Origin: Yuukianura sp. NJ FZ-2021
Taxonomy: Eukaryota
Reading direction: 5' to 3'
DNA length: 64,000 bases
Assembly (NCBI GenBank): GCA_046563655.1
Contig: CM102289.1
Coordinates: 6,324,001-6,388,000 of the forward strand
Made by a program: the position numbers and the translations under genes. How positions within the stretch are numbered: the first letter of the stretch is position 1; every line of letters starts with the position of its first letter. Positions 28,830 to 60,611 of this stretch are shown piece after piece. The notes under the pieces are model-generated. The model did not search any database. It saw nothing but the letters and a program-made list of their open reading frames with translations, and was not told where the DNA came from.

Positions 28830-29517
28830 TATTAAGTCGTTTTATATTTATTTTAATGCATTTCCAACAAAATAAAAAGTGACAAACAATTGTTAAAGTT
28901 TGGAAATAAATTTTTAAATGTAATATTAATTTTCAAAGACTCATGTAAGGTAATTAGCTAAACCTTAAATAAATTCAGTAGTTGAAAAAATGTAACATGC
29001 GCTATATTTCATGCAATGAATAGAACATGGAGCTTGATATTCTTCTGACCTTCGTCAGTCGTACGTTTCCAAATCAGTTGCAATTGATTCAAGGTTTCTA
29101 GCGTAAAAAGAAGAATTTTCATGTTTCATTTGTGCAATTCATAAAGTGAACTCAATTATAAATTCAGATTTAAGTGAGTTTAATCAGAGCTGTCAGTCAA
29201 GTTCACATGCTTGATTGTCTCTGCCATATAATGACTGAATCGTCCAGCACATACGGTTCAAGAAGTTGTCATGCAGCTTAGGACTAAATGTACGCAGAAG
29301 TGTGAGAACAAATTCGAACCTATCAACGTCCACAATTTTATGAAACACTTCGTCAGAAAAATTTAACACTTTTATATTTAGCTGGAGTACAACATTTTAC
29401 CAGTCAGCTTTTTCCTTTCCAACTTCAACAAAAAATTTACTCGTATCTTACAATATCTGACAGCGTAACAAAAGCTGTGTGATAAATAAGAGTAATTTAA
29501 AAAACGTTTTTCTAAAA

Positions 29518-32500
29518 ATGGAGAATCATCTTGGATTTTTGGACTATGCATGTGTTGTGGCAACTCTCGCTGGCACAGCGCTGATTGGGATTTACTTTGG
29601 GAGAAAAAATAAAACAAATGACGATTTAATGCTTGGAGGAAGGAAAATTAATCATTGGCCTGTATCTCTGTCAGTGATGGCATCCTATGTGAGTTTCAAA
29701 ATTTTAAAACGAGACTTATGACAAGAAATTTGAAATAAAATAGCAAATTCTCTTTTAGATTTCGGCGGTCACCATTATAGGTAAAAACCAAATTTAAAAA
29801 AAAAAGTATTGCCGGGAACACTATTGTTGTTTGAATTTTCAAAACTAAGAATTTCTTTAACCTTAATCCAGGATTTCCTGCAGAGGTTTATGGCTACGGA
29901 ATTGAAATTTTCAATATGGCGGTTGTGGGTATAATCATGTTCCCAATAAGCATGGCCGTTTTTGTCCCATTCCTCTACCCAATGAAACTAACTTCACTGT
30001 TTCAAGTAAGGTGTCCTAACATATTTTTAGAATTTATGCCTTCCACGTCAATACGTTTGAAATTATTTTGAAACAAATTTGTATCAGTATCTGGAGCTAC
30101 GTTTTCACGATAAAACTCTACGAAAATTGGTGTGTGGGATTTATATTTTTGAACAACTTGCGCTTACTGGAGTTATTCTGTACGGCCCATCTCTCGTCCT
30201 GGATACTTTTCTAGGAATTCCTACGTGGATGTCAATTTTTGGAATTGGAATACTTTGCGCTTTGTACACATGCGTGGTAAAGCCATTTGAAGTTTAGAAA
30301 TTATTTGAAAAGTCTGAAATTAAAATTCAGTTACTTTTGGGCTTTGGTTACAAAATGTTACTTTGTAAACAGGGTGGAATTCGAGCAGTAGTCTGGACAG
30401 ACGCGCTCCAAGCCATCATAATGTTCCTAGGTAAGAAGTTTGAATCTCGTAAGTTAGAAATATTATAATATTATATTTTTACTTTGAACTTTATACAGGA
30501 ATGGTGGCTGTAATGGCCAAGGCTTTTATGAATTCAGGGGGAATTTCAAACTCTTTTAGCATTGCCGAAGAGAGTGGAAGGCTTAACCTTTTCAAGTAAG
30601 CGAAGATAATTTGTGTCGAACTTTTTGTGAAAATCGCTTATTCAGTAGCAAATGTAGCTAGGTACTTTATGTGTTTGCTCGTGTACGTCTGTCTGCCCAT
30701 CTGCCTGTCTACTTTTTAGTCACAATAACACCAGAAGTTTTGGTTGGATTTTGATTCTGTTTTAACAAATCAATTTGAAATGCTCGGAATAAGTTGGTTT
30801 CCAGTTTCACCGGAAGTGACTAAATTGCAGGGTCAAAAGCAAGGTCAAATATTTATTTAACGATAATCGAAGAAATGCCCTTTACAATAGTTGTTCGTTA
30901 TACTGAGCCAAGCAACTTTTTTGTGTAGTTGACCTTGACCTTTGACCTACTGTTTTGTAGTTATGCGTGTAACCTAACAAGCGTTCAATTTTATTTCGCT
31001 GCTTTCCATCCTACATTTACAACGTTTATTTTAAAGTGAGACTACGATATTTTTCAACAGGATGAACTTCGACATCTTTCAGCGTCATAATTTTTTTAAT
31101 TTCTACCTGGGGTTCGCATTCAGTTCTTTCTTCCGAAGTTCAGTTCATCAGCAACAACTTCAACGTTATTCGAGTCAACCGACATTGAAAGACGCAAAAA
31201 AGTTTGTAACCTTGCACCACAAAAATTTTCCTTTTGTACTACATTTTTAAATACCAACTAATTTTCATGTTTTGTGTACGCAATGATGGTAACAGAGTCA
31301 TGCTTCTCAGCATCCCTGCAACTTTTGCCGTGAAAGTTGTGACCGTTTTAACTGGAATTGCTGTTGTTGGTCTCTACTACAACTGCGACCCTCTTAAACT
31401 CGGAAGCATTAAAAAAATGGATCACATTATTCCATACTTTGTTGTTACGGAAATGAGTTACATTCCAGGTATTCTTGGGCTCTTTGTTGCATGTATCTTC
31501 AGTGGTGTGCTCAGGTATTACTAAATCATAACAATTGGCATTAACAGAAAATAATTTTAGACATTTTTTTTTGTAAAGTTCGATTTCGTCGAATCTAAAC
31601 TCTATGACGGCTGTGACCTGGGAAGACTTTTTGAGTGACATTCCAATGTTTGCAAAATTGGGCTCGATGGGCCAAGCAAACGTGTCTCGAGTCACTGGAC
31701 TTGTGTATGGGTTGATCATCATCATCCTGTAAGAACTGCTTTTACATTTGTTTGAAAAGTTCTAGTGAGCTAAATATAACTTTTATACGTCGGTTTCAGT
31801 GCCTTCAGCGCTCAATACATGGGGTCAGTTTATACTGCCAGTTATCAAGTGACTGGAGCTTCAACCGGAGTGGTTGCGGGTGTGTTCCTCGTTGGATTTT
31901 TTATACGCTACGTAAATGCAACTGTAAGATGTATTTTGGTTTTACAAAGTAGGGACAACAAAAATATTTACGCAGAATTGTTTGCGACTTATGTTTGGAC
32001 TCAAAACTGTAAAGGGCAGAAATACTTTTCAAATGTTGCAAATTTTAGGGAGCAAAAGCCGGTGCTACCGTTGCCTACATTGGAATTATGGCTATCGGCG
32101 TGCGGAATATTTTTTCACAAATGCTAAAAGAACCCACTTTGCCTACAAGCATTGACGGCTGCACTTCTGAGCAACTTGCAACTTTTAATTCAACTAGCAT
32201 AACGCCAAAGTCTATATATGTTCCACCGTAAGCGTTTCAAAAAAAAAACTATACCTCATTCACAGTTTTTTCTGAGGTAATTTTTTTATGTCCAGGGAAT
32301 GGCCTGAGAAAATTTTCGCAATTTCGTACTTGATGTATCCTTTAGTTGGAGCGATCGTCACAATTCTCGTTTCTATTTCCGTGAGCTACTGTACCGGAGG
32401 TAACAATTCGTTTCTTTAATAATACCATTTAATAATTTAATAGTACCATTGCTTGGAAAATATTTTTGAAAATAGTTTTTCATTGTTTCTAAACACAGGA

Positions 32501-32623
32501 TTCCAAAACGCACAACTTGTTCCGGAAGAATACTTGCATCCATGTGTACGAAGCGAAATAAAACAGAGTGCAAACAATGGTAGCTTGAATCAAGTCAAAA
32601 CGATCCGTGAAACTAGCGCGTAA
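29518..32623 (+). CDS. SLC5/SSS sodium:solute symporter, paralogue 2
   Basis: Same exon order and motifs as paralogue 1 (YLELRF, GGIRAVVWTD, YYNCDP, GLFVACIFSG). Ends ETSA*. Confidence 0.92.
30640..30960. mobile_element. Probable degenerate non-autonomous repeat in an SLC5 paralogue 2 intron, with a related copy at about 34700-35100 in paralogue 3
   Basis: This intron is about 460-560 nt in paralogues 2 and 3 against about 65-70 nt in paralogues 1 and 4. It contains a GTCT/GTCC microsatellite and GGTCAA...TTGACCTTGACCTTTGACC inverted motifs. Boundaries are approximate. Confidence 0.4.
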
Positions 32624-33566
32624 ATTTTTTAGGTTAGGTGCGATGGTCTAATTGTGTTTGGTGAATTATTTCGGAACGAACTTTGATTTTAATCGGAACA
32701 TGTTTTAATAAAATATCTAATCCCCCTCCCAAAAAAAAAAACATTCCTTTAATGTTTTGCAAGGACTTCGATATAAACAAGGTAGAGGCAGGGTAATGCT
32801 CAAGTTTTGAACAGACATTGGTGTTCTGCAGGGAGTTGACAATTTATGCGACTTTCTACATAATTTGTTTTTACATAGCAATAAAGCGAATCACTTAAGA
32901 GGGAGAAGAAAAAATCCACATTCATTTGAGAATAGTAAACAAATGTCATTTGAATTCAGCGTAAGGCGTAAATTAGAAAAATGACATAGAATTCCAGTAG
33001 TAAGTTAATTAGTTAATCGAGAATTTAGACAATAGCCTTGTGCAGTTTAGCTTCTAAGCGTTACTTAACAAAACCCTATTTAGGTCGGTAGGTATTTTTT
33101 TTGTACCCCTAACATAGGAATATTTCACCACAAAACCGTTCATAACCCGGATATGATGTGGCTTTGATTTGCGTAAATACAACAACTCTTGCGTCTGAAA
33201 CATTGTTCTTTGAGGTCAGACGAGTTTAATTGCGGCTACAATTTTTGTGTACTTAATCTTCTTAAACCGCGAAATTAAATTGCAGGTAACCTGGAAATTG
33301 AAATCATGCGGAAAAGAATCGGTTGAGGTTTTGTTATAATCATGCAACAGTCGTGTGTAACCATTATTCAACAGAAGTAAATTTTAAAACTGTGGTGTAG
33401 AACTCTTCTATATTTTAATGCTAATCCAAATACTAAAACCGCGCAGTCAATTGTTTAAGTTCACACAATAAATTTTCAAGAAACTGATTTTTCATTCTTA
33501 AAGCAATTTTTAGTGTGCAAAAATTTTCCTGTATCCTAAATACTAATTTGAAAACGTTTTTAAAAA

Positions 33567-36500
33567 ATGGAAAATCATTTGGGAGTTTTGGACTATGTAT
33601 CTGTGGTGGCAACCCTCGTAGGGACGGCGCTGATTGGGGTTTACTTTGGAGGAAAAAATAAAACAAATGACGATTTAATGCTTGGAGGAAGAAAAATCAA
33701 TCATTGGCCTGTAGCTTTATCTGTGATGGCATCTTATGTGAGTTTCAAATTTTTAAAACAAAAAATTATAGCTGAAATCTTTAAATGGCAACTTCTTTTT
33801 TAGGTTTCAGCAGTAACTATTATAGGTAAACCAAATTAAAAAAAAAAGCATCGCCCTGAGCATTATTGTGGTTTGAATTTTCTAAACTAATCGTAAGAAC
33901 TTCTTTTACCTTTATGCAGGATTTCCTGCAGAGGTTTATGGCTACGGAATTGAAATTTTCAATTTGGCGCTTGTGAATATAATTATGTTTCCAATAAGCA
34001 TGGCCATCTTTGTGCCATTCCTTTACCCAATGCAAATAACTTCGCTGTTTCAAGTAAGGCCACAGAATTTTTTTTTCCACATTTAAACCTTACACAATGG
34101 AAATTTTGTAAAAACGATTCTGTCTCAGTATTTGGACCTACGCTTTCACGACATAACTCTACGGAAATTGGTGTGTGGGATTTATATTTTTGAACAACTT
34201 GCACTTACCGGAGTGATACTTTACGGCCCATCTCTCGTCCTGGATACTTTTCTAGGAATTCCTACATGGATGTCAATTTTTGGAATTGGAACACTTTGTA
34301 CTTTGTACACATGCGTGGTAAAGCTATTTGAAGTCTAAACATTCCTTAAAAACGATCAAATTGAATTTTTTTACCATTGGAGTTTGTTTACAAAACATTA
34401 CTTTGTAAACAGGGTGGAATTCGAGCAGTAGTTTGGACAGACGCGCTCCAAGCCATCATAATGTTCCTAGGTAAGAAGATTGAATTTAGTAGTTTAGGAA
34501 TATACAATATTAAATTTGTTTTTACTCTGAACTTTACACAGGAATGGTGGCTGTAATGGCCAAGGCTTTTATGAATTCAGGGGGAATTTCAAGCGCTTTT
34601 AGGATCGCGGAAGAGAGTGGAAGACTTCACCTTTTCAAGTTAGCAAAAAAAAACTAATCGTAAACTGTTTCTGAAGATCGTGTATTAAGTAGTGAATGTA
34701 GTTCGATACTTTATGCTTTTGTCTGTCCGTCCGTCCGCCTGTGTGTCTACTAGTCACAATTAACTCAAGAATCTCTGGACGGGTTTTGGATATGTTTTGA
34801 CTTTTTTTTTTTGCAAAGTTTCGCATCTGTTTTGCGTTGAAAACTTAAACAGAACCTCTTGTGGAATGTGTTTTCAACATTTTTGTTTAACGGTTTTGCG
34901 GGCGGTTGGAAATGTCTACAAGTCAAATCAATTGTCAAGCTTTCCAAGGCTGCTGGTGCTCAATCCTTGCGCATTGCTCTGACCTTGTTTTGACACGGTA
35001 ATCTAAGAAATGACCTCCACAAGAGTTGCTAGGCTGTGATCATTACACTGAGCCAAACAACTTTTGTGTTGAGCTTTACCGTTGGCTTACCGCTTTGAAC
35101 ATGAATCTACCAAACCTTTCTGTCCACAAGTCCACATCGCTACTTCTATACAGCGTTTACAACGGTTTATTTTAAATTGAAGCCATAAATTTTGTCAACA
35201 GGATGAACTTTGACATCTTTCAGCGTCATAATTTTTTTAATTTCTACGTGGGATTCGCATTCATTGCTTTCTTCCGAAATGCAGTTCATCAACAGCAACT
35301 TCAACGTTACTCAAGTCAGCCAACATTGAAAGACGCAAAAAAGTTTGTAACTTTACGCCAGAAATTTTTATTTTGATATTAAATTTTAAATAAGTTCAGC
35401 AACTAATTCTCATTTTTTGGGTACGCAATGCCCGAAACAGAGTCATGCTTCTAAGCATCCCTGCAAGTTTTGCCGTGAACGTTGTCAGTGTTCTAACTGG
35501 AATTGCTATTGTTGGTCTCTACTACATCTGCGACCCTCTTAAACTCGGAAAAATTAAAAAAATGGATCACTTGATTCCATATTTTGTTGTTACTGAAATG
35601 GGTTCCATTCCGGGTGTCCTTGGACTCTTTGTTGCATGCGTCTTCAGTGGTGTGCTCAGGTATTACTAAAACAAAACTGTAACATTAACAGAAACAAACA
35701 ATTTAAAACATGTTTTTTTTCTGAAAAGTTCGATTTCGTCGAACCTTAACTCCATGACGGCAGTAACCTGGGAGGACTTTTTAAGTGACATCCCAATTTT
35801 TTCAAAATTGGGTTGGATGGGCCAAGCAAACGTGTCCCGAGTCACTGGGCTTGTGTATGGGTTGGCCATCATCATCCTGTAAGTACTATGCTTGTACACA
35901 AGTTCAATAAGTTCTGATTTAACTTAAATGCAAAACGTTTATGTCGGTTTCAGTGCTTTTAGTGCTCAATACATGGGGCCAGTTTTTACTGCGACTTATC
36001 AAGTGGCTGGTGCATCAAGCGGAGTCATTGCTGGTGTGTTCCTGGGCGGATTTTTTATACGCTACATAAATGCAACTGTAAGATGTATTTTGGTTTTAAA
36101 AACGTTTACAAAAACCATATTCAAACTGAACTACAGAAATATTTTAACTCATAATTTAATTCTGGGTTAAAACATATATCTACCGAAATACTTTTGACAT
36201 GTTGCAACTTTCAGGGAGCAAAAGCCGGTGCTATCGTTTCATACATTGCAATAATGACAATCGGGATCCGAAACATTTTTTCACAAATGCTAAAAGAACC
36301 CACTTTGCCTACAAGCATTGACGGTTGCACTTCCGATCAACTTGCAACTTTTAATTCAACAACCATAACACCAAAGTCTATATATGTTCCACCGTAAGCG
36401 TTTCAAAAAACCTATTCCTCGATCACGGTTTTGTTTCTGAAGTAATGTTTTTCTATGTTTAGGGAATGGCCTGAGAAAATTTTCGCAATTTCGTACTTGA

Positions 36501-36774
36501 TGTATCCTTTAATTGGAGCTGTCGTCACACTTCTAGTTTCCATTTGCGTGAGTAGCTGTACCGGAGGTAACAATTCGTCTTTTTTAATAATACAGTACCA
36601 TCGATATGGAAATATTTTTACAAAATATTATTTAATTGCTTCTACACAGGATTCCAAAAAGCACAACTTGTTCCGGAAAAATACTTGCATCCTTTGGTAC
36701 GAAGAGGCACAAAGCAGAGTACAGGCAACGGCTGTTTGAATCAAGTCGAGACGATTCGAGAAACTAGTACGTAA
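33567..36774 (+). CDS. SLC5/SSS sodium:solute symporter, paralogue 3 (closest to paralogue 2)
   Basis: Exons are near-identical to paralogue 2 and introns are alignable. Ends ETST*. Confidence 0.92.
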
Positions 36775-37597
36775 ATAATTTTTAATGTTGTGATGTTGTA
36801 ATTGTGATTAAATTAATTATTTGGAATCAACGTTTGATTTCAATTAGAAAAATCTTTTAATAAATCAACTAATTTAAAAAAAGAAACATTCTTTGCAAAG
36901 ACTTCAATGCAAAATGTTTTCAAATTAAAAGTTGTAGCGACGATTTATTTTATATAATGCAAGGTCAGCCGTTTTGAGGGAGAAGCAAAATTTTGAAAAT
37001 GGTAAACAAAAGTCGTAAGAATTCATCGTAAGATCAAGAATGGAGGGACGACATACTTACAATTCAAGTAGTAAGCAAATTAGTTAATCAAATTAAGAAA
37101 GCTAAGCGAATTAAAATTTAGAGCATAGTAGTGCGCAGTATAACATTTACCCATTGCTTGAACAAAACTCTAATTATGTCTGTAAAATAATTGGGTTGTT
37201 ACATGGGACATAGGAATATTTCAATAGAAAACCGTCCTTAACTGGGATATTTTGTGAGGGTGACTTTTGATTTACGTCAATACAAAGAACTCGTGCTTCT
37301 GAAACGTTGCTCTTTGAGGTCACACGAGTTTAATTGCGGTTACAATTTCTGTCGAACTTAATCTTCATTAAACCGCAAATATTTAATTGTAGGTAACTTG
37401 CAAATTTAAATCAAGCGAAAAAAAAACATTTCAGTTAAGGTTTTGCGAGAAACATGCAACACTCGTGCGTAATAATTACTCAATAGGTTTAAAGAGCTTT
37501 TTTGAAAACAGGGTAATTTTTTTAGTGTGACAAAATTTACCGGTGTGCTTCAACTAATTTACATTACAGCGCATAGAAATACATACGTTTGTATAAA

Positions 37598-40257
37598 ATG
37601 GAAAATTATCTTGGATTTTTGGACTACGTATCAATTGTGGTGACACTTCTTGGCACAGCGTTGATTGGAATATACTTTGGTGTAAAAAATAAAACAAACG
37701 ACGATCTACTGCTTGGCGGAAGAAAAGTTAATCCTTGGGCCGTAGCGCTATCTGTCATGGCGTCTCATGTGAGTTTCCAAATTAAAAAATATTTAATTTG
37801 ATTACTTTTTTTTTAATTTCTAACAATTTGTAGATTTCGGCAGTAACAATCATAGGTAAGACTGTTACAAACACCAATTTCAAACTAATGGCTTAAAATT
37901 GCAATTTTTACAAAATTCGCTCAGGATTTCCTGCAGAAGTTTTCGGCTATGGAATTGAAATTTTCAACATGGCCATTGCAACAGTGATTGTGTTTCCAAT
38001 AAGTGTGGCCATGTTTGTTCCATTTCTTTATCCAATGAAACTCACGTCAATTTTTAAAGTAAGTAGTAAAGTAAAGAGTCGTTTCAGTACCAAACAGAAT
38101 TCAAGAAGATAACTTTTGTACACTTTTTTGGCAGTATTTAGAGCTTCGTTTCCACGATAGAACACTACGAAAATTGGTGTGTGGAATTTATATTTTTGAA
38201 CAAACTGCAGTAGCTGGAGTGGTGCTTTACGGGCCGTCACTGGTTCTGGACACATTTCTAGGCATCCCCACGTGGATGTCAATATTTGGTGTTGGAATAC
38301 TTTGCACCTTGTACACATGCGTGGTAAAGGTTTTTTTTAAATGTTTCTTCCACTCAGATTTTAAAAGTGTAGCTGCAAGTTGTTCAATTTCTAAACAGGG
38401 TGGAATTCAAGCTGTGGTATGGACAGATGCACTTCAAGCCGTCATAATGGTTTTAGGTAAAGAAAAAAAGAAAAATGTATCAAAATTTGTAAAACTGCTG
38501 ATTTTTGAATTGTGTACCCGAAAAATTTTATCTAAATTATCCAGGAATGGTAGTAATCCTGACTAAGGCTTTCATAAATTCAGACGGCATTTCCAGAGCT
38601 TTCGAAATTGCTGAAGATAATGGAAGACTCAAATTGTTCAAGTAGGTGAACTGCTTAAAAAAGTTGTTTAGAACTTGATGAATTCTTGAGACTTAAAATT
38701 GCGCTTCTGACAGAATGAATTTTGACATTTTCCAACGCCATAACTTTTTCAACTTCTACTTGGGCTATGGTTTCCTGACACTATTTCGAAGTTCAATTCA
38801 TCAACAACAAGTTCAACGGTATTCAACTCAACCCACTCTAAAAGATGCAAAGAAGTATGTAGTAACTCATAGATAAATTTTTCAGAAATTCTATATTTAT
38901 TATAACTACTAGTACTATATTTTATATGAATTATAATATGCCTTTATGCTATCCATCAAAATAGAACAATGAATCTGAGCGTCCCTGCAACCTTTGCCGT
39001 CAAAATTGTCAACGTTCTGACCGGAATCGCTATTTTTGCAGTGTACTACAACTGTGACCCCATCAAGCTCGGAAAAATTAAAAAGTTGGACCACGTAATG
39101 CCGTATTTTGTTGTTTCTGAGATGGGCCAAATACCGGGTATTCTTGGACTTTTCGTCGCCTGTATCTTCAGCGGTGTGCTCAGGTAGAAAACGTAACCCA
39201 CACACACAGAAAACGCAGCATAACTTTACACTTTGTTTTATAACTTTTAAAGTTCATTCTCATCTATCATCAATTCCTTAACGGCTGTGACCTGGGAGGA
39301 CTATTTGAGCGACATTCCAATTTTTGGAAAGATGTATGGGCGTGGTCAGGCCAATGTCTCTAGGGTGACTGGACTACTTTATGGCGTCGTGAGCGTCGCA
39401 GTGTAAGCAGAGCTTTGACTTTAAGCTAATCTCAGGTACGTTAACTCAATTACATTCACAATGTGTTGATTCCAGTGCCTTTAGTGTTCAGCACATGGGC
39501 TCCGTCTATTCTGGAGCGTTCCAAATCGTTGGAGCTTCAAATGGTGTTGTTGTGGGAGTATTCATCAGTGCATTTTTTATACGTTACATCAATGCAACCG
39601 TGAGTCGCCGCTGAATGTGAAACTGTGTGTTAATTAACCACGACATCTACTCATTTCAGGGAGCTAAATTTGGAGCAATCGTGGCATTTCCAACAATGCT
39701 TATAATTGGGTTGAGAAATTTATTCTCAGAAGTACTAAAGGAACCAATTCTTCCCACCAGTACATCAGGTTGTACTTTTGAGCAACTTACAAGTTCAACA
39801 AATTTAACAACGACCCTACCGTTGTCTAAATATGTCGCACCGTAAGTACTGCTGAAAACAAAACCGAATCAAATTCAAATTATGTCAATTTAAGGTAAAC
39901 TTTTTAGCCAAAAAGGCTCACAGACAATTTAAAATTTTAGGGAGTGGCCTCAGAAGATTTTCGTAATTTCGTATTTGATGTATCCCGTAGTTGGAGCCAT
40001 TATTACACTTTTAGTTGCTACTTGTGTGAGCTACTGTACCGGAGGTAAAAATTCAACGTCGATTTTAGTTACACTATGTGCAAAAAGTGTTTCAAATGTG
40101 TTCTTAACAACAGTTTTTAAAAACAGGGTTCCAAAATTTACAACTTATTCCAGAGGAATACCTGCATCCATTTGTGAGAAGAAACACAAAAGGGAATGTA
40201 CAATGCGGAAGTGAGATTGTGAGACAAACTGAAACAATTCAGGAAACTGAAACATGA
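37598..40257 (+). CDS. SLC5/SSS sodium:solute symporter, paralogue 4
   Basis: Same motifs and exon structure as the other three. Ends ETET*. Confidence 0.92.
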
Positions 40258-41048
40258 ATCCATAACCTGCCGCTTTAATTAAGAAAGTTATTTGGGCAAA
40301 ATTCTGATAATACCAAAAAAAGAAAACGCTTGGTAAAATAAAGTTTACGGTAATAAAATAAATAATAACAAAATTTTTATAATATTAAAACCAACCGTAT
40401 TGAGGGATCGCTCCCGTTCCCGTAAAGCAGTAAAGAAAAAACGCTTCAACATGGCGGGAGATGATTTGAAGTAGATTTTTTTACGGGACTAAAAATTTTT
40501 AAGTTTTTGATACAACTGCGTGCAAAATCGAACTGACCAATTGCTTATGGTCAACGTTCTGAAATATTTGCAGCTAAAGGAAGGAAAAACTGTCAAAGTC
40601 AGGATTTGCTGAGAAACTAGGGAACTTTCTTCAATAATGCATAAACAATCAAAAATTCCCTAAACCACAATACCAATTTTCGAAAACAATTCTTTCCTCA
40701 ACCAATTTTCTGCAAAATAATAATACCTAATACGAATTAGTTAACCGTGGAAATCTTTTCCTCAACCTGGAACTTTTCTACCAAAAAATAAAAACAATAA
40801 AAAAAAACCACAAGGACAATTATACTTGTAGTATTATAAATACTATAATAGAACTACCACATTAACAAATTCGTAAACAATTTACCTAACGTTTGTAATT
40901 TATTTAAACATCGAATTGAGTATTACTAATACCCTAAAATGATTTAAGTTAGCAACATGAGAAAAACTATTAGACTAGTATAAATCCAATCCACAAAATA
41001 CTTTTGTAAGAACAGACTTTGAAAAAAGAAGTGATTTCTTGGTCCGTG

Positions 41049-41415
41049 CTATTCCAGTGATCTGTAAGCTTGATAAGCGTTTGGATGTAATCTCTATTTA
41101 AAAAAATTAAAATCTTTGTATAAGAGTTGTATTTCGCCTTTATAATTACAATTTACCAATAGAAAAATAGTACGAAAATAATTAGGTATACCCTCAAATG
41201 CGTGATGAAATTTGATGTCGTCGTGTTGAATGCTGCAATGACTCGGCCGCACTCCATGCATTTGGCATACGATTTGTGTTCAGGCCCAATCCGAACAATG
41301 GACGTCAATTCAAAAAAAGTTCCGTTCAATATTTTCGGAAGTTTGTTCCTAAGGCGAATGCGTGGAGGTGAGAAGTACGTCGAGTCAAAGTATGGACTCG
41401 TTTGGATAAGCATTA
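41049..41415 (-). CDS. Alternative terminal module V8 of the BTB gene: BED-type zinc finger (exons 41415-41192 and 41093-41049)
   Basis: Phase-1 acceptor; PKILNGTFF...CMEC...TTSNFITHLR|RLHP...*. Confidence 0.85.
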
Positions 41416-41951
41416 CTGTTACAAATGACACATTAATTCTTTTACAATTTTCATAACCATATAATTCAGTACAACTACATTTTCATCAATTTAAAACAAA
41501 CTGCGTTTGTTGCTTTCATGAGAGTTTCACCACGCTAAACCCGGTTTAAATTCATAATGAACAACAACTTATTAAAAAGTCAAGAGAATCTGAAATCTGG
41601 TAAATTAAAAACAAAAAAGCTTCATCCAAACAACGAAGAATTTATTATTTTTGCTTCTGTAAATTAATTAAATATATAGAAAATTACTTAATTCTAAACG
41701 ATAGAAAGCTATATTCAAAGCTAATAAAACTTTTCCATCTAGCTAGAATTGGATTTCAGTAAGCAAGCAACTTCGCTTCTTCCTGTACACGCCATTAGAA
41801 CAAAGCTCAAATCCCGAGCAAGGCGTCAGCATCCTCGATGGACACTTTGTAATTTTCATAAGTTTCTGGATGATTCAACTAAAATAATTAATTCAAAAAA
41901 ATCTTCAAAAATTTTTCTTTTAAATATAAATTTTTCAAGTGCAACTGTTAC

Positions 41952-42130
41952 CCGTAAATGGCGCACAAATGCGGCTGTTCCATCATGTTCAATCCTCGTA
42001 TTACAAAAGCGACAAGTTGCAGTATGAAAAATCCGTATCTCAGAACCAACCAATCGCCTATTAAATCCGATCCACTTGTAGTAATTCCCGTTCAAAATAC
42101 GGCGATACTTTTTGCTCCGCTTAAAATTTT
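41952..42130 (-). CDS. Alternative module V7, first exon (BED-type finger; second exon unclear)
   Basis: Phase-1 acceptor; RRILNGNYY...CRFC...GTAAFVRHLR|gt. Confidence 0.75.
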
Positions 42131-42388
42131 CTTGTAAACAACAAAATTAATCAAAACAAACGCAAATGTTACGCTGCTAACCGTAAGTTTTGCTTGCTAA
42201 AAATAAACCCATCGCTTGAGAGATTCACCGCAAAATAAACAGAGGCTGGCAAACTTCATTAATTAATGGACTTCAAAAAATACTAAATTTTTATTCCACA
42301 AAAACTGAAAGATTGAGGCAATACACATTACTGCTAACATTCCTTTAGGAACTATAAATATTTCCCCGATTTGCCCTGTCTAAGTCCT

Positions 42389-42707
42389 TTACGCTAAGCG
42401 CGGCTTCTCGCTCTTGAACGCATAGTACTGCCTACTATGCTTATTCTGAAAATGAATTCAAAGTATTCAGAAAATGCTAAACCAATCATATCACTTCTCA
42501 ATTTCAATTTCAAATGTACCTTCAAATGCCGAACAAAACTTGAGGTCATGACCCCTGACAGATATGTGCCGCAGTAGCAGCAAGCAGCTCTGTACTTGTT
42601 TCGTACTATACCACTAACACAAACTCTGCTACAAACTGAAACATCTTCAAAGTATTTCCCATCCAAAATTCGTGGAACAGCCGAACTTCCACCGCCTTCG
42701 TTGTCTC
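42389..42707 (-). CDS. Alternative module V6: BED-type zinc finger (exons 42707-42520 and 42445-42389)
   Basis: PRILDGKYF...CCYC...TSSFVRHLK|NKHS...*. Confidence 0.85.
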
Positions 42708-42934
42708 CTGTTTCCAAATATTACAATCAACTACACATCACGAAAGAGCCAATCGAAAAAATTTCTCCGTACTCAATGAGAGGTTCACCGTCCGTTAAAT
42801 TTACTAGTATAATAAATCACATATTCATGTGTTGCATCACAGAGTTGAAATTTGAGCAGAAGTCTAGAAAACATCTACTATCTATTGGATGGAGGCAGAT
42901 ACAGGTCGTCAAATTGCTTTTCAGTTTTGATTGT

Positions 42935-43266
42935 TCAAGAATTTTGAAACTCTTCGTAGGATTCAGGATGTTGATGCTACAAGATAGCAAACGACAAAAT
43001 AAAATCTTGACAATTGAAACTTAATTAAAAAAAAATTACTCTCAAATGCCTGATGAAATTGGAACTCCTGTCGGCCTTATAAATGTTGCCACACGCCAAG
43101 CACTTTCCACACAACTTTACTTTCTCCCGCCCATCTTTGACGTATGTTATGGACTCGATCGGATCAAAAAATCGTCCATCTAGAATTCTCGGACCATAGA
43201 ACCTCGCACCAGCAACGGAAGACATCACACCATCCGCATGTCTTTCATCCTCATCCTCTCGAATTC
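42935..43266 (-). CDS. Alternative module V5: BED-type zinc finger (exons 43266-43040 and 42976-42935)
   Basis: PRILDGRFF...CLAC...SSNFIRHLR|HQHP...*. Confidence 0.85.
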
Positions 43267-43652
43267 CTTTCAATAACCAAAAATCCTAAACTTCTTCTAA
43301 AATAAAAATTTAAACCAAAAACCAAAAAGAGGTTCACCACAAACACAAAAGTTTAATACGTAATAACCGCCAAATTTCATTCCAAGATCAGAAAATTATA
43401 CAAAGAGTTTTTAATGTAAGAAAATTTTTTAACACACATCTAAGTTAAATTTCGTCAAACCTAACTACATTTCAAAGATTCAACAAGTGCCGAGAAGTAC
43501 AAACAGCAAATAAATATGCAACTGGAACAACGCCATCCACTAACTTATTAAATGAACAAAAAATTGGTAAGTACTGTCATACAAGTACATAATTACCCAT
43601 TAACGTAGTTTAAGTAACAATTTAGCAACTCCTTGGAACTCTTCTGTGGTAC

Positions 43653-43954
43653 CTAACGTTTGTAAAGACGGTATAACGCTGGATGCATTACCTATAATAA
43701 AAAACACGCACAACTGTTGAAACTTTGTTTTTCGCAACACAAGAGGAATATTGCAACAATTCTAAAAATCATTACCCGCAAGTGATTGACAAAATTGGAA
43801 GGTTGAACAGAATTAAAGTCCCGACTGCACTCACGACACTTTGCAATAATTCGTTCTCTCTTCCTTCCAGCATAGTCAATGTATTGAGTACGACAAAGTG
43901 TTTCAAAAAATATGCGGAACAGAGCAGCAACGCTGTATGAACCCGGTTTCAAAT
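43653..43954 (-). CDS. Alternative module V4: BED-type zinc finger (exons 43954-43776 and 43691-43653)
   Basis: LFRIFFE...CREC...PSNFVNHLR|VMHP...*. Confidence 0.85.
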
Positions 43955-44380
43955 CTGTGTAACCTAATCAATTAACCCACCTTTCTGCAATCCATTTTTT
44001 ATCAAACAAACTTTTAGACTTGGAGTATTCACCACGCTAAAAACATATAGATTCAAAGGCGCAACTCGCAACTTAAGATTTTCGAAACTTTTATATCTTA
44101 CTCTTGTTACGAATAAGAATCAATTCGGATTCCTAAGTGGCCAATAAAAGTGCCGTGTTACTCAAATAAAAAAGTGATTGTGTACGTGTTTAAACAAACC
44201 TATTTCAAATATTTCCTTGATAAATGCTCTTTAAAATTTAAGATTTTGGTTTCCGCAGTTGAGTGGAACTGTTTTTGAAACGGACGAAAGACCGCAGACG
44301 CTACTTCTTTGGCTTGCCAAAAAAAAACTTCTCCAAAATTACGACAAGAATTTTTTCAGTGCTTTAAAAACTTGTCATAC

Positions 44381-44538
44381 AATTAATTGTTTCTGGAAAT
44401 TTGCGACATTCACGGAATTGAAAGCTTGTTTACATCTAATACATGTAACACCAAAACGTTTCCAATCCTTACCGAAGTGATGCACAAATTGAGTGTAACT
44501 TTGAAAAATCTTCCATCCAGAATTAGACGGAAACCGCA
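44381..44538 (-). pseudogene. Alternative module V3: degenerate BED-like exon, not in the ORF track
   Basis: The phase-1 frame is open through CIRC...ANFQKQLI|gt, with the first His replaced by Gln. The family motif LILDGRFF lies in a shifted frame. It has its own selector at 44641-44659. Confidence 0.6.
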
Positions 44539-44802
44539 CTTCATTTAATATTAGTGGTGAAAGTAAAACTAGATCATCGTTACAGAAAACGAAAAAAATT
44601 CAAAGTTTCCAAATTTTCAAAGAATGATCGAAGTTCGTTCAAGAGTTCACCAAGTTAGCACTCGGAGCAAAGGGAAAAGTGTAAAATTGCCCTACGTTAC
44701 AGAATTCATCGCAATAAAATCCTACGCGAATTATTCAGCAATCGACCTGGATTCAATAATTTTAAAGATAAGTTACAGGCAACTAAAATTAGAGTTACGA
44801 CA

Positions 44803-45155
44803 CTACGAATACATGGCGGTATTTTTGTGTTTGTTCCTCGCTGCAGTTCTTGCTCTTTGATACTGCAAAAACGACCGTGGGTGACGATTCTAGTAAAAAC
44901 CAATTGCTCAAATGGTCAAATCAACCCAAATTCTAGATGCAAAAAGCAGTTTTTTTTTCAAAATTAGTACCTGCAAATGTCTTACAGCATTCGAACTCCT
45001 TGAAGTGTTAACGACAGCGTTGCATTGAACACACTTTGCCGAAATTCGACTACGGAAACCAGAATTTTCTAATACTTTTTCGCATGATAGAATTTCAAAA
45101 AATCTGCCATTGTAGATTGAACCCATGTACTTGTTGTACTGAAATTTCCGTCTCC
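44803..45155 (-). CDS. Alternative module V2: BED-type zinc finger (exons 45155-44971 and 44889-44803)
   Basis: SIYNGRFFE...CVQC...SSNAVRHLQ|NRHP...*. Confidence 0.85.
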
Positions 45156-45308
45156 CTTACGAAGTGAAACAAAATACAAAGTTTATAAAATAGAAAATAT
45201 TGTAAGTTTGTCGTTTAGACCAGGACGATCACCACGTTAAACTCTTATTACTGTCATTACAACGTCCTACAACTCAGAATACTATGAACTTTGACACATT
45301 GTACAGTT

Positions 45309-45644
45309 CTAATTTCTGTACTCCGCATGAAGCTTGGAATGGGCACGCTGAAAACAAATTAAATCATAAATCAACACGTTACTTAAGATGCACTTTTAAC
45401 AACAAATTGCCAAAAATGGCTTATGTGAGTATAGTTACCTTTAAATGTGCAATGAAATTTGAAGTGGTTTGTCCTACAATAGTTTGGGTACAAGAGGAAC
45501 AAACCCCAACGATTTTCCTCCGTCGTAAATTTGTCTTTTTGTCGATACAATATGAGTCCGACAAAATTTCAAAAAATTTCGGATCGAAAACACGAGGCTG
45601 TAATTTTGAAGTGAACGGAAGTCCAGGCCATGCGAGAAAATGCC
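45309..45644 (-). CDS. Alternative module V1: BED-type zinc finger (exons 45644-45439 and 45347-45309)
   Basis: PRVFDPKFFE...CSSC...TTSNFIAHLK|RAHS...*. Confidence 0.85.
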
Positions 45645-46464
45645 CTGTGTAATGTCGCAATATTTTCTAGTATGCAACTTTAGTGTTTTAATAGAATCGC
45701 ACGGTATGGGTCATCGTCGACCACTTAAGTCATACGACGCCTCTGAGAGGCACACCGCGTTTTAAGTCACCTTTGTCAAACTTTAAAATTTTGAACATGG
45801 GTGAAAATATTCCAAAAGCTTCCACCTCCACTGATTCAGCAATAAACTGGAAACAACCTTATTACAAAGCAAAAACCAAACCAGAACCAGCCCAGACTAA
45901 ATACTTGCAATATGTCATGTGAATACATTAAAAAAACTGCACATACAACTAAATAAGTTTCTTTAACACAAGATAGATACACCTCGAATCCTTATAATCA
46001 AATTCACAATATTTATGCAGCAAACAGCAGGGCGACTGCTACATTTCAAATTAGAACAAATCCGTCCTTTGAGACTTGAAAATGGATAGCCATTTCCATT
46101 TAAACGTACACGTTATGCAGTAGTATTTTTCCGAAAATAACTCCCATAAATGTTCTAATGGGTTTACACGCCATGGCTAGGGGTGTTACAGTCTGTCTCA
46201 GAAAAGGTATTTAGAAATCACATTGGAATATTGGAAATATAAATAATATGTGACTGCGTAAAAGTTGTATCCAACATCTAAGATTTCATTTCTTGAAAGA
46301 AGTGAACAATTTCAATTTCAACGAAACTGTAGCGTTATGTCGAGTTACTTTATGACAAAGTTGGTTTTAAGAGAATTCCTTTGGAAAATAGACTCAGGTT
46401 GAACCGAACTTTCAAAGCTAAATAAAAGTCAAACCTTCTGAAACAGACAGTACCCCCTTTGACT

Positions 46465-46490
46465 GTTTTAACGTGGTGAACCTCTCAAGG
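46465..46490 (-). promoter_or_regulatory. Putative splicing docking site (RNA 5'-CCUUGAGAGGUUCACCACGUUAAAAC-3')
   Basis: Lies 40-65 nt into the intron after the last constant donor (46530). It is reverse-complementary to eight motifs, one upstream of each variable module. Confidence 0.8.
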
Positions 46491-46530
46491 TCGCCATGAC
46501 GACAAATTAAAAAGATGGAAGCACTCTTAC

Positions 46531-47851
46531 CTTCTCCATCGGAGCCACCACCTTGACCACCCGTCCGTTCCGTTCCATCGTCGTTATTCACATAACCATC
46601 CCCTGGTTCCTGCTCACTATTTCCAGGATTATCATCGCCGATTTTAAAACGTTCGGAAAAGCCTAGAATATGTAAAAAGGAAACAATAAATGAACAAAAA
46701 ACTTTTTTGAAAAAAGTAATCGGAGTAACCAAAAGTATGTGTAAGTAGTGACCCTAACACATTGAAAACCTACTTGATTGGCTCATTGAATTGTCTCCTT
46801 CTCGTTCTTCCTCATCCAAATCCACTTCAACATCCACAACGGGAACGTCTGCCTCGATCTTAACCTGCAATAATAAAAACAGCGGGTCGCTCAGTACGAT
46901 TATAAACTCAGAACTCAGAATTCGTTTAAGATTGATAGACAATCTTAACAGCTTGCCTCTTGGCCTCCATAAGCCTCTGGCTCTTCCATCAATGCTGCTA
47001 GCGATGCGAAGTTATCGTTCTCACGAGATGAGGATTCATAGAACGGAGGTGTTGAAATTGATCCCACGGTCTCTAATGGGTCTTGCGGCAGCACGTTTAG
47101 AGCGTCCTGAAGAGGGTCCACAACTTGTGAAACCCTTTGTACCTGCGTGATTTGCGTCGTAGGAATTTTAGGATCCATTCTAGGTTTCTTGATAGCTGGC
47201 ATAGAAGAGGAAGCGGTGTGAGAAGTAGTAGAAGTGGCTGTTGCTGATGCGAATGGGCGTGTCGAAGAAATACGGGTAAGTTGCACGGTGGACGTGGAAG
47301 GAATAGTAATAGGAGCAGGAGCTGCTGGCGGTGGCGATGGAGCAGCAGTACTTGGTGCTATATGAGGTGTTGTTTTCTGTCGCTTGCTTCCAATGTCTTT
47401 CAAAATAATTGTATCCGACGAAATACTATTTGTAGTTGTTTCAACCTCTGTCAATCCGCGTATTTTGAGAGACTGAGCAACAGCAAGGAGGGAGTTCAAA
47501 TCTTCATGTGCAATGCTCACTTCACCACGGTACATGTACTGAATTAGCGCTTTCAGTTCAGCATACTTGACGTCCTTCAGGAAGAAAATTGGATGCTTGC
47601 TAGTGTCTAGATCCAGCAATTTCTAAACGCACACCAACAGTTAAAAATAACAAAACAGCTTGCTTTTTAGTAAAATGAGTTACCTGGAAGTAGGGACTGC
47701 ATGCTGAAAGTATCACACGATGTGCTCGAATATACTGACCCTCACATGCGAGCGTAACATCGACGAATGATTCACTAGCCAGCAACACGTCGAATAAAGA
47801 CAAAACAGTTCCTTGATGACTCGTCCATCGAAGTCTGATTTGTCCATCCAT
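46531..47851 (-). CDS. lola: Constant exons of a Tramtrack-group BTB protein most resembling Longitudinals lacking (lola-like): 47851-47684, 47622-46957, 46864-46774, 46662-46531
   Basis: [18 protein letters not shown]...[24 protein letters not shown]...[27 protein letters not shown]...AQSLKIRGL. It ends at a strong donor GAAG|GTAAGA in phase 1. The symbol reflects similarity, not proven orthology. Confidence 0.8.
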
Positions 47852-48947
47852 TTCTTCAACACGAGACTTAGCTGCGCTCGTGTTCTGAAAATATACAATC
47901 TATAATATAAATACCAGAAGATGATTAAATGGTAATAAAAATTTATATTAATACAACGTGTTATTACCAGTGGATGATGAATACTACTACCGTTTCGAAC
48001 TCCGTACTCGGTGTCGGTATCCGTAACTTTATAAAACAGTAGTTTTTAATTTGTTGATTCTAACCGAAGATCGATCCGGTGTAATCCGACTCCTGGCCCT
48101 CCTCTTGTTATGTTTTTGCTGATTGATGAAATGATGCCGACCGATCAATCGATTGATCTTAGTATTCGAAAAATAAAAAACCCGAATTCTGAATATGAAT
48201 TTCGATGATGATGTCTCAAAGGCAAACATTAAAAAAAAATATCCCTCTCCTTTAGTAATCCGTGTCGTTCAAAAATGTTCGCACATTACCCGTAATGCAT
48301 AGACAAAGTTGGGAGCACAAACTAAATTACAACTGCTTGGTGAGATACTTAACAAGATGTTATTGTGTATTATTTCAAATAAATATTATAAATTGAAACA
48401 AATTAATTTATTATTTTTCATAAATAGTATGAGTTTTTTGAATAACCTATTTATTACCTGCAGGAAGAAGGTTTCAATGATGATTGTTGCCCATACAATA
48501 GGGCGGATGGCGGTAGTGTACCGGTTGGATAAATTTCAAATATTTCAGTTTTTTTCCACTTTCAAATCTCCAGCGCTGGATTGCCCCATCATATCACCGC
48601 CACCGCGTTATCTGCAAATCCGCTTATACCGATGACATAAACCCTGCCCTGGCTTCCGCTACATCGTAGCGCTTCACTCTTCTCCGCTTGATGCAGGAGT
48701 TCGCGAAGTAGCGAATCGCTGCCAGCTCATTTCCGGTCGACGCTTTAGAATGGGCAAAGTTAACGGCAACCGTAACATGTCTAATTTCAAGCTTCTTCAA
48801 CACAACAGAATGTGATTGGGTGGAATGCCATTGTAGTAATTCAATTAACCCCTCCGGTAATTAGACAAACAGTTCTGGAAACCTCCAATGAAATTTACTC
48901 GTGAAGTATACACCAATGCATTTAAATATTATGTCTTCATATATTAT

Positions 48948-57482: not shown

Positions 57483-58384
57483 GTTAGCAGTGACTCTGTC
57501 GTACCTCCAAGCATCCGCGTAGATACAACGCAACGCGACTAACCAACGAAAACGTAAGGAACAAAAACAATAAATTAAATACCAAATTGACACTTAAAAA
57601 TTTGTCTAAAAATATGATTTTTTGGTTGAACTGTACTTAGGCTCCCCTCCTGTACCCATCCGCTCGAATTTTCTGATTAACTCTGATTGTATTGTAACCT
57701 ACCCATTGTAACCACCGAATAGGTGCATTTGTACCCACCAAAATACAAATCCAATACGTTCATTTAGCGGAAGTCTGTATTCAAGTTGACAACATTTTTT
57801 CCGTTTGATTTAGTAAAAATGAACTTTTAGTTTCCCGTGCGCGGTGTTAGAGAGCAGATGAAATTAGAAGCGTGGTTACAGGAGGCGAGCCCAAGTTTAC
57901 TGCCACCGACCTTTTCTATTTAGCGCGACACACGCGCACTTACCTATACGCCCAGTGCATCAGGCATCGGCATCGAATTTCTTTACATCTTCTTTCTTTA
58001 TACTTTTTCCTTGAAAAAGTATTATTAAACCATTAAATTTTGCTTCAGATTGTAAATAATTAAATATCCAACCTGTACTACAATAAGTTAAACTCCATGA
58101 ACAATGTAATGCTGGAAGTTCCTGCAGTTGCTGGATAACATATAACATAACCATTTTTCCAGAAAAAAAAAACTTTTTATACACCAGGCTATCAAGTAAT
58201 TTGAGTTTTTCAATTGTTTGCCAAAACTTTCAAAAACAAAACAGTTAAAATAAAAAATTTGAGTTAGTTTTGTAAACGCTATTTACGCTTTTATAATAGA
58301 AGTTAGGTTAGGTTAGGTGCAGAGACGATAACCTGTTTCGCTATTTAATTTTCATTACGTTTAAGATTAACTACGAACTAAACG

Positions 58385-60611
58385 TTAGCGTAAACTCAAA
58401 TTCGTATCATAGTCGTGGGCAAAAAGCGCGTACCCAACAATTGGTTCCAAATTTGGCGGTGGGCTCCCTTCCGGGAGACTAAATTTGAACTTTTGAAGCA
58501 GAGTTGTAATGAATATGAAAATGCTGTCACGAGCCAATACTTCTCCAAAGCAATTCCGTTTGCCTACAAACAATTGAAACGATTTAAAGCTGGTTTTTAA
58601 ATAGCAACCAGTTTTCTTTTCCTCTTTTTTAAAAATAGTCGACCTGTGCTAAATAGAAGTTGGATTCTTTCCACTTTTTTGGAATCCAATTTCGGAAAAG
58701 AATCGAAGAATCTTTCTGGACGAAAAACTTGTGGGTCTCCCCAAAACGCTTCTTCAAAGAAAATACTTTGCAGATTCATCATCATAGCTGTTCCCTGTGA
58801 ATTAAAAAGGTTTTAAAGTTAATCCGGATTATTAGCTTAATTCTTATTATTAAATTTCATTTTGCTAACTTTCTTGATACAGTACTTTCCATAGACAATC
58901 GGGGCAAGGGCTTCCCTTGGAATACCCATAACGATTTCGCGACTCCATCGCATGCCTTCTAATATAACGGCTTGGGTATATGGCATTCTAAATCAAAAGA
59001 AAATATTCTAAATATACACAAAACGTAACATCATGAGCTAAATAAGTTTTTGCCGTTATTACGAAAATTTATCGTCAATGCTGGGAATTCTGGTTCCGAT
59101 GACTTCAGAAATTTCTTGGTAAACTTTCTGTTGTACAGTTTGATTTGCCACTAGTTGAAGCAAGATAAAGTTGAGAACGTTACTGGTTGTATCCATTCCA
59201 GCTTGAAGAATGTCTGCAAACAGTAGACCAAATTGGTCCTCTATAAAACAAGAGTTGGACTTTCAAACAAGATTTCAAAATAGTGTCGATGTATTTTTAT
59301 ATTTAGTTATTTGCTACCAGTGAACAACGGATTTGTTTGTCCAGTAGTGGCCACTTCTTCGTCCATTTTTCTCAAAAAGTCATCCGCGAAACACGTTGGA
59401 TTTTTGGCATAATTGCCCGTCTTTCTCCTTTCTCTAAGGAAATTCTAAGCACAGCATTAATATTAAAATATAACATTGCTAATAATAAATATCACTTTAA
59501 ATTTAAATTAGTTTAGTGATTGGAACTTTCTTCAAAGTGCTAAATGTAGTCGAATTATAATACAAAATTACTATGATATAAGAATGTACTTTGTTTTACC
59601 AATGCATCAGCTCGAAGTGTATTTATTCCTCTCATTTGTACGTTGTATCCAAGGGCTTCTGGGAAAATGAACCTTAAGAACGGAAACGCAACCATGAGAC
59701 CTGCGCCAAACACTCCCTTTCTGATCAGTTCATTTGAACTTTTGATCCAATTTTGAAGCACTTTGTCGTTGTAAGCATAACGCTGTCCTGTCATCCAAGT
59801 CGTCATGATGTTTGCAAAAGGTAAGTTGAAATAATCCGAATATATATGGAGAACTCGGTCACCGTTGGGCTGCGCATGTGCATCCTCTTCCATAAATTTA
59901 AGAAATTCAGTCAATTCGTCTATCAGCATGTTGCGCATGGCTTCTCGGTTGCCATAACCGTAATTCGCAAGAGTCTTTCGACAAAATGTACGAGTCTTCG
60001 ACCATGAAACAAGATCGGTGCAAAAACCTAAACCTTCAAAATTACCCAAATTACACCAAACCAAATAAAGGTAAATTACACTATAATTGACTCAATTAAT
60101 ACCAATGTCCTTTCGTTTGAGATTTCTGTCCCATATAACACCGTTACAAAACCTTCCAAGAGCTTCATCTCTTGTAAAAATCGAACGCACTGCTTCATAC
60201 GATGATAGTACGACTGTGAAAAACATGATACTATCATATGGATATAATATTCACTTGTGCCTAACCGAACGCACTGGCGCCTGCGTCATGCCCATTACAC
60301 TTTTACCTGTATCAACCAATCCCATTTTGATACTCATGATGTCTCCATATTTTTGAGCCATTTGATGCAAAGCAATGTGTGCATCCTTATACTGCATGCC
60401 AACCTGGATCAAATTTCCAAACGGAGGAATTCGAACGGGACCTTTAGAAATTTTAGTTTCAAAAATTAGATATTGTGGTAGATAAATTTAATAATTTTTA
60501 AATAAAACTGATTAAATTAAAGTTACCGGGCGGTCTTCCATCATTTCTGTTTTCAATATAAAACAAAATCAAGTAAAGGACTACAAAAATTGTTAGCAAA
60601 ACTTCTATCAT
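58385..60611 (-). CDS. Cytochrome P450, CYP2 clan (CYP15/303/305-like), complete
   Basis: N-terminal TM anchor followed by PPGP; WSKTR (WxxxR); I-helix QAGMDTT; EGMR (ExxR); FRPERF; heme motif FSTGKRNCFG. Confidence 0.93.

Follow-up and report, generated by a model that had tools for sequence, protein, structure and literature searches.

How does a gene that encodes its BTB domain only once attach one of many alternative 3' finger modules to each messenger RNA (mRNA)? This question is raised by a minus-strand gene in a 64-kb stretch of the genome of Yuukianura sp. NJ FZ-2021 (assembly GCA_046563655.1, contig CM102289.1, positions 6,324,001 to 6,388,000; hereafter the window, whose first nucleotide is position 1). 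Two exons of this gene (47851-47684 and 47622-46957) encode a BTB domain, and eight tandem 3' cassettes on the same strand, each consisting of a BED-type finger in two exons with its own stop, form a 5.5-kb array. The last constant intron carries a short sequence, the dock, and each of the eight cassettes is preceded by one sequence complementary to it, a selector. We consider it highly probable that the dock and the selectors of this lola/mod(mdg4)-like BTB transcription-factor gene form a docking-site/selector RNA pairing system in its pre-mRNA, and we infer that the duplexes form in vivo and steer the choice of acceptor. A sequence-only reading of the window had proposed this arrangement for a BTB gene with eight alternative zinc-finger modules, and the gene itself is as described, with Pfam BTB matches on both exons and eight BED-type cassettes behind them.

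In the proposed mechanism, one selector would pair with the dock, and the core shared by all selectors would permit a single duplex per transcript. The duplex would loop out the intervening cassettes and set one acceptor beside the constant donor. The outcome would be one constant region and one finger module per mRNA. The pairing would act chiefly in cis, along read-through transcripts of this compact array, and it would be equally workable between transcripts.

The last constant intron begins with GTAAGAGT at 46530, directly after the exon end at 46531, and the 26-nucleotide (nt) dock core is located 41-66 nt into this intron. The dock and the selectors are listed below. The energies are in kcal/mol and were obtained with RNAduplex, and the background of all dock scans in the window is the 64-kb window, not the genome.

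46465-46503, minus strand: docking site, with the core of the sequence-only reading at 46490-46465 and a block identical to the related locus L001 (see below) at 46498-46470
45729-45765, minus strand: selector 1, -29.0 with the core and -47.2 with a 51-nt dock, ending 83 nt before the acceptor at 45644
45224-45242, minus strand: selector 2, -24.0
44641-44661, minus strand: selector 3, the weakest, -20.7, ranked 12 in the window and 8 in the array
44019-44044, minus strand: selector 4, -30.0
43328-43340, minus strand: selector 5, -27.4
42777-42799, minus strand: selector 6, -30.3
42215-42242, minus strand: selector 7, -26.8
41517-41541, minus strand: selector 8, with the strongest core pairing, -30.9

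The ten strings quoted by the sequence-only reading (the dock, the selectors of V1 to V8, and an extension of the V1 selector) all lie exactly where it had placed them. The window selectors use the central and 3' part of the dock, and the V1 selector alone extends into the 5' flank of the dock, which up to 46503 pairs with no other selector. A blind repeat search also recovered dock-selector pairs as the inverted repeats I6 and I14, and I6 corresponds to selector 8 (90% complementary over 21 nt).

When the 26-nt dock was scanned against the minus strand of the 64-kb window, the seven best sites were the selectors of V8, V6, V4, V1, V5, V7, and V2 (-30.9 to -24.0). The best unrelated site on this strand reached -22.6 and is weaker than all seven. 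In the 5.5-kb array, the claimed sites account for all of the top eight peaks, and the next peak falls to -17.0. The earlier expectation that these sites would be the eight top hits was thus borne out in full in the array and for seven sites in the window. Dinucleotide-shuffled docks (60 in all) had on average 0.03 and at most 1 site with an energy of -24 or lower, versus 7 for the real dock, and their eighth-best energy had a mean of -15.0 and a minimum of -16.2, versus -20.7 for the real dock. One complementary sequence before each module, in all eight cases, is therefore beyond the chance level set by shuffled docks. On the plus strand, the dock's own complement aside, the best site reached -24.3.

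With a 39-nt dock, two unrelated sites (about 7100 and 10075) enter the top nine, and V3 leaves the top 30. The first of these, at 7060-7105 on the minus strand, resembles a selector in both halves, with an AGCGTG-TGAATTCTCAA part and a GTCGTTGCCATG part. It ranks fourth against the 39-nt dock (-33.0) but reaches only -19.5 against the core. This site has no finger module behind it and lies upstream of an unrelated minus-strand gene (a signal-peptide-like open reading frame at 6246-6536); we therefore rejected it as a selector, and it is probably a chance match.

The selectors also occupy a constrained position. Their 3' ends lie 55-103 nt upstream of phase-1 acceptors, one per cassette in all eight cassettes, in agreement with the 60-105 nt estimated previously. 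By a simple estimate that assumes random placement, eight sites would all come to lie no more than 120 nt ahead of an acceptor with a probability of about 8e-7. When the eight upstream regions are aligned, conservation is confined to the selector block and the rest of the introns is unalignable, so the earlier remark that the flanking intron is not conserved was correct. This alignment has a mean column identity of 43%, and its invariant columns are GGTG and one T. In the predicted duplexes, seven dock positions (46478-46475, 46483, 46484, and 46486) are paired by all eight selectors, which argues that only one selector at a time would sit on the dock, as the sequence-only reading had supposed from the common core.

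A related locus provides independent support. Searching metagenome contigs with constant exon 2 of the window gene yielded four loci, L001-L004. L003 and L004 are other BTB genes, in which only the BTB half matches and no dock is found, and we did not retain them. The comparison with L001 spans 20.7 kb. Gene A of L001, on its plus strand, has the same four-exon constant structure as the window gene. The L001 dock is identical at 29 of 29 positions to 46498-46470 of the window and lies 33 nt past the last constant donor, in an intron that is otherwise unconserved. This block is the longest exact match between the whole 64-kb window and L001 on either strand, the next being 17 nt. For comparison, the first BTB exon is identical at 48 of 56 residues between the window and gene A, yet of the 46 identical residues that have degenerate codons only 19 share the codon, and uninterrupted nucleotide identity extends to 14 nt at most. 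All nine would-be codons of the dock block are identical between the two loci. The dock is thus held more tightly at the nucleotide level than the most conserved coding exon.

The cassettes downstream of the L001 dock, at least 13 in number, encode lola-like C2H2 fingers instead of BED fingers, and all have a phase-1 acceptor. The 9.6 kb that follow the dock contain 14 dock-complementary sites at or below -28 and the 11 kb that precede it contain none, whereas 25 shuffled docks gave a mean of 1.04 and a maximum of 3 sites on L001. The L001 selector sites precede the first Cys of the C2H2 cassettes by 60-75 nt, and one cassette below the threshold still shows a selector at 16631-16655. In most L001 selectors, pairing involves the 5' and central dock segments. 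Five adjacent cassettes with near-identical selectors look like recent copies.

Of three tests for selection at the level of RNA, the one based on the dock flanks was discriminating. In this test, sites were picked by the shared 29-mer alone, and the 10-nt dock flanks of either species were then added. In 23 of 29 cases, an L001 site pairs more stably with its own dock's flanks than with those of the window dock (p=1e-4), and it does so in 13 of 13 cases when the core energy is -24 or lower (p=2e-5), versus a baseline of 170 of 388 random L001 segments. The L001 selectors are therefore co-adapted to the flanks of their own dock.

Several observations weigh against the pairing system. Selector 3 ranks only 12th in the window and is no better than the best background sites. 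Of the 22 substitutions in the window selectors, 5 preserve wobble pairs, 4 are mirror transitions, and 13 are transversions. Several deviations do keep G-U pairs, as the sequence-only reading had pointed out, but G-U retention is not enriched (5 versus 4 mirror transitions), and we reject it as evidence for RNA pairing. The sense duplex beats the antisense duplex at 21 of 27 sites under a biased selection of sites and at 15 of 20 in L001 under a symmetric one; unrelated sequence favors the sense duplex as well (29 of 44 and 39 of 56), and this equal bias led us to discard the asymmetry as evidence for RNA pairing. In the flank test, the window selectors prefer their own flanks in 7 of 8 cases, not a significant excess over the baseline of 239 of 387 (p=0.13). 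The covariation anticipated for related species is thus present in L001 but not established by the window alone, and it comes from a single relative, since L001 and L002 are the same sequence (99.9%). Canonical AATAAA or ATTAAA signals stand behind only some cassettes. The dock lies in the same frame at both loci (..HGDLERFTT..), in an open reading frame continuous with the last constant exon, and part of its conservation could be coding. Finally, in the gene of this architecture that has been studied most, Drosophila mod(mdg4), complementary pairing was tested and found not to drive joining (PMC13490949).

An alternative is that the element is a binding site for a protein, on DNA or RNA, that occurs in both orientations, for example a promoter or insulator motif, with a complementarity of no function. 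The wobble and strand-asymmetry tests give no sign of selection on RNA in the window, and the eight selectors do share a clear consensus. However, the orientation is strict across the 8 window sites and the 14 strong L001 sites, with a single opposite copy placed just past the constant donor, and an RNA-binding protein would leave this reverse-complement copy unexplained. Different selectors match different stretches of the dock, and the L001 selectors track the species-specific flanks of their own dock, which a fixed motif does not predict. We regard a protein-binding site as very improbable.

The open frame through the dock bears on another explanation, in which the pairing is real but serves a different purpose, such as masking the dock, setting the rate of intron retention, or controlling polyadenylation or termination in the array. 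Translation continued from the last constant exon passes through the dock and remains open for about 37 codons in the window (46418-46530) and about 35 in L001 (11017-11122), and an intron-retaining short isoform without a finger is conceivable. RNA structure in the common intron of mod(mdg4) has also been linked to termination (PMC13490949, PMC6237743). On the other hand, the read-through peptides of the two loci are alike only within the 29-nt block, in which identity at nine codons exceeds what the coding exon shows. In two species and with two types of module, every acceptor has a selector a set short distance ahead of it, as acceptor selection predicts, and a role at the donor alone would not need selectors before acceptors. 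A purpose other than acceptor choice seems very improbable to us.

The selectors might also be mere leftovers of tandem duplication, matched by the constant intron by chance. The cassettes are clearly duplicates of one another, and the five neighboring L001 cassettes appear recent. This explanation is strongly disfavored, and we give it hardly any weight. The cassette proteins have diverged to 24-48% identity, and their upstream introns are otherwise unalignable. The pattern is not reproduced by shuffled docks, and the dock is identical over 29 nt although constant exon 2 is only 45% identical in protein. Taken together, the orientation, the varied dock segments, and the co-adaptation are hard to reconcile with either a fixed protein motif or duplication debris.

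The eight cassettes whose acceptors the pairing would select share a common layout. A phase-1 AG acceptor, found in all eight upstream of a conserved RIL(D/N)G-FF motif, opens a first exon that is open throughout, contains a Cys-x2-Cys ... F-x-x-H-L-K/R motif, and ends at a GT donor. An internal intron of 63-112 nt follows, and a short second exon provides the second His and the stop. The phase of the acceptors is compatible with the phase-1 constant donor. Several acceptors have a poor pyrimidine tract, which would fit a need for activation by proximity.

45309-45644, minus strand: module V1, exons 45644-45439 and 45347-45309, acceptor CAG/GG, second exon RAHSKLHAEYRN followed by the stop, zf-BED E value 0.004
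44803-45155, minus strand: module V2, exons 45155-44971 and 44889-44803 with stop, zf-BED E value 0.011
44200-44568, minus strand: module V3, exon 44568-44381 and a possible second exon 44268-44200, no Pfam match
43653-43963, minus strand: module V4, exons 43963-43776 (or from 43954) and 43691-43653 with stop, aligning with the other modules
42935-43266, minus strand: module V5, exons 43266-43040 and 42976-42935 with stop, zf-BED at 21.1 bits, over the cutoff of 20.6
42389-42707, minus strand: module V6, exons 42707-42520 and 42445-42389 with stop, zf-BED E value 0.002
41807-42130, minus strand: module V7, exons 42130-41952 and 41878-41807 with stop, zf-BED E value 0.0065
41049-41415, minus strand: module V8, exons 41415-41192 and 41093-41049 with stop, zf-BED at 23.3 bits, over the cutoff

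The first-exon peptides of six of the eight modules match Pfam zf-BED (PF02892; E values 6.7e-5 to 0.011), and two modules exceed its gathering score. The matches are partial because the intron splits the finger. Neither V3 nor V4 has a match, and for V4 no zf-BED match at an E value of 0.1 or better was found. The cassette peptides can be aligned to one another and are old duplicates (mean pairwise identity 33%, range 24-48%). A profile of the eight modules, run against 1.84 billion representatives, retrieved 52 proteins; among the 18 that were scanned, zf-BED was present in 15 and BTB in none. Searching longer proteins with module V5 gave no match, and a six-frame search of the whole 64-kb window revealed no ninth BED cassette. 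An AATAAA follows V8 at 40904.

The finger of V3 lacks the first zinc-binding His (..FQKQLI), and judging from its sequence this cassette is probably decaying. The degenerate finger coincides with the weakest selector (44200-44661), which suggests that cassette and selector are decaying together. When the flanked dock is used, further dock-complementary sites appear within coding first exons, at 42545-42590 in V6 (-34.0) and at 43195-43238 in V5 (-26.7), both on the minus strand. These sites may be chance matches or decoys.

The arrangement of the cassettes also bears on whether pairing would act within one transcript or between two. If the dock and the selectors tethered separate transcripts, the same pairing would promote trans-splicing; this is a variant of the pairing system rather than its opposite. 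A BTB constant part with many terminal finger modules is the architecture of both classic trans-spliced loci, Drosophila lola and mod(mdg4) (PMC4387717, PMC11426971), and trans-splicing aided by RNA pairing is documented for chelicerate sDscam (PMC9258826). A dock by the donor and selectors by the acceptors would tether equally well in trans, and each cassette has its own stop. Against this stands the compactness of the array, in which eight cassettes share one strand of 5.5 kb with only 153-391 nt from a stop to the next acceptor, leaving scant room for eight promoters. Moreover, neither locus has a strong U1-binding pseudo-donor in the constant intron: requiring at least 8 of 11 matches to the U1-complementary consensus, we found 0 in 46525-45645 of the window and 0 in 11022-12222 of L001. 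We consider joining in trans possible but rather unlikely, and the co-oriented cassettes with their short stop-to-acceptor gaps lead us to favor joining in cis for the pairing system.

The constant region preceding the array comprises four exons.

47684-47851, minus strand: constant exon 1, coding part from the ATG with the first half of BTB, from the open reading frame and a Pfam BTB match (E value 8e-12)
46957-47622, minus strand: constant exon 2, second half of BTB and a low-complexity linker, Pfam BTB E value 1.8e-8
46774-46864, minus strand: constant exon 3, acidic (VKIEADV...SMSQSS), placed by splice sites and frame in the sequence and by its L001 counterpart
46531-46662, minus strand: constant exon 4, the last common exon, ending GAAG/GTAAGAGT in phase 1, with a tblastn match to L001 10841-11110

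The ends of constant exon 2 were placed by reading the sequence and by comparison with L001, to which this exon is 45% identical over 220 residues. The intron after it apparently opens with GC (GAG/GCAAGC; 46955-46956, minus strand) and is likely a GC-AG intron; at the equivalent position, L001 has an ordinary GTAAGT. The best named database matches of the BTB half are insect lola, tramtrack, bric-a-brac, and jim lovell proteins. The gene would thus carry an N-terminal BTB of the Tramtrack group, an assignment to subgroup that rests on database matches only. Compared with longer proteins, the constant region gave matches only at the level of BTB and no close annotated orthologue. Orthology to lola proper was considered and rejected, since the Gryllus 'lola' match is a fusion with three BTB domains and its similarity is likewise limited to BTB. 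No Rfam family matched in 40000-48500.

The neighboring genes are unrelated to the BTB gene. A Brf-like gene, a Vps11 gene, and P450 genes lie on its 5' side, and plus-strand transporter genes on its 3' side. Three springtail proteins, 63-64% identical to the Vps11 fragment, are its sole named matches (three of four at an E value of 1e-20 or better), which makes a springtail or a close relative the probable source of this DNA. Judging from translations of open reading frames only, tandem duplicates of a sodium-coupled transporter-like gene occupy 26000-40300 of the plus strand, and tandem cytochrome P450-like duplicates occupy 58300-64000 of the minus strand.

L001 shows further features around gene A. 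Four selector-like sites occur at 11469-12160, within the first 1.1 kb past the dock and before the first clear C2H2 cassette. The open reading frames between them contain finger remnants only, which may be decayed cassettes. On the minus strand of L001 (1-2480), a second BTB gene, gene B, lies head to head with gene A and shows the same constant layout of four exons. Its exon 1 and that of the window gene share 85% identity. The first cassette of gene B encodes a FLYWCH finger (27.2 bits) and the second a C2H2 finger, so that mod(mdg4)-like and lola-like modules occur in one gene. No dock with the sequence of gene A was found in the 1.2 kb available for gene B.

How does this arrangement compare with known systems? 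In exon 6 of Drosophila Dscam1, Graveley reportedly described a docking site and selector sequences in 2005. As in that system, the dock in the window lies downstream of a constant exon, each variable exon has a selector, and the selectors overlap in a common core. The Dscam1 exon 6 variants differ in being internal and mutually exclusive, with a repressor relieved by pairing, whereas the cassettes here are terminal. Because these terminal cassettes have their own stops, exclusivity also follows from transcript termination, unlike in Dscam1.

A closer parallel is offered by the 3' variable regions of Drosophila PGRP-LC, CG42235, and Pip, for which dock/selector pairing has been validated by compensatory mutations (Pan et al. 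2018, RNA 24:1466, PMC6191721). Those genes also have one intronic dock by the common exon and complementary elements before tandem multi-exon 3' cassettes, and pairing activates the cassette downstream of the selector, as we propose here. The window gene differs in being a BTB transcription-factor gene with finger modules from a springtail-like hexapod, known from sequence alone. It also differs in that eight selectors share one short dock (at least 14 in L001), and in the conservation of the dock, with 29 identical nt shared by loci whose proteins are 45% identical. Chelicerate sDscam resembles the present case in that intronic complementarity joins a donor to one of several acceptors in a clustered arthropod locus, and it differs in that the pairing joins transcripts of different clusters started at alternative promoters (PMC9258826).

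With lola and mod(mdg4), the window gene shares a Tramtrack-group-like BTB in constant exons and tandem terminal zinc-finger exons. Its modules are BED-type, unlike the C2H2 pairs of lola and the FLYWCH fingers of mod(mdg4). The partners of Tramtrack-group BTB domains are given as C2H2, helix-turn-helix (HTH), and FLYWCH, and BED is absent from the passages found (PMC11426971). In the fly genes, the common intron was searched for complementarity to the 3' introns with a negative outcome, and joining depends on a U1-binding pseudo-donor and redundant protein-binding motifs (PMC4387717, PMC13490949). What brings the shared 5' part together with a particular 3' module is described as still unclear (PMC11426971, PMC4387717, PMC13490949). 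Unlike fly lola and mod(mdg4), the window gene has explicit complementarity and, by the threshold used above, no strong pseudo-donor. In the openly accessible literature covered by our searches, no dock/selector system was described for BTB genes or for springtails. A tentative further possibility, to which we assign a low probability, is that dock/selector pairing was the ancestral joining device of the lola/mod(mdg4) family, including its trans-splicing, and that springtail-like hexapods would have kept it while flies replaced it with U1- and protein-binding intron motifs.

From a single locus, genes of the lola and mod(mdg4) type produce dozens of transcription factors. The conserved and statistically strong dock with a selector per module, present in two loci of this architecture, points to a simple and testable mechanism by which one module would be joined. 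The pairing system would carry dock/selector control of 3' variable regions, validated in three fly genes, into a family of transcription factors, and it would add BED-type fingers to the interchangeable modules of BTB genes, a combination of BED and BTB seen in 0 of the 18 profile matches scanned. The 29-mer also provides a comparative handle, as it may be traced through springtails, early hexapods, and crustaceans to follow the gain or loss of pairing. If the pairing is indeed the ancestral device of this family, the 29-nt dock would be among the most conserved intronic RNA-RNA recognition elements known.

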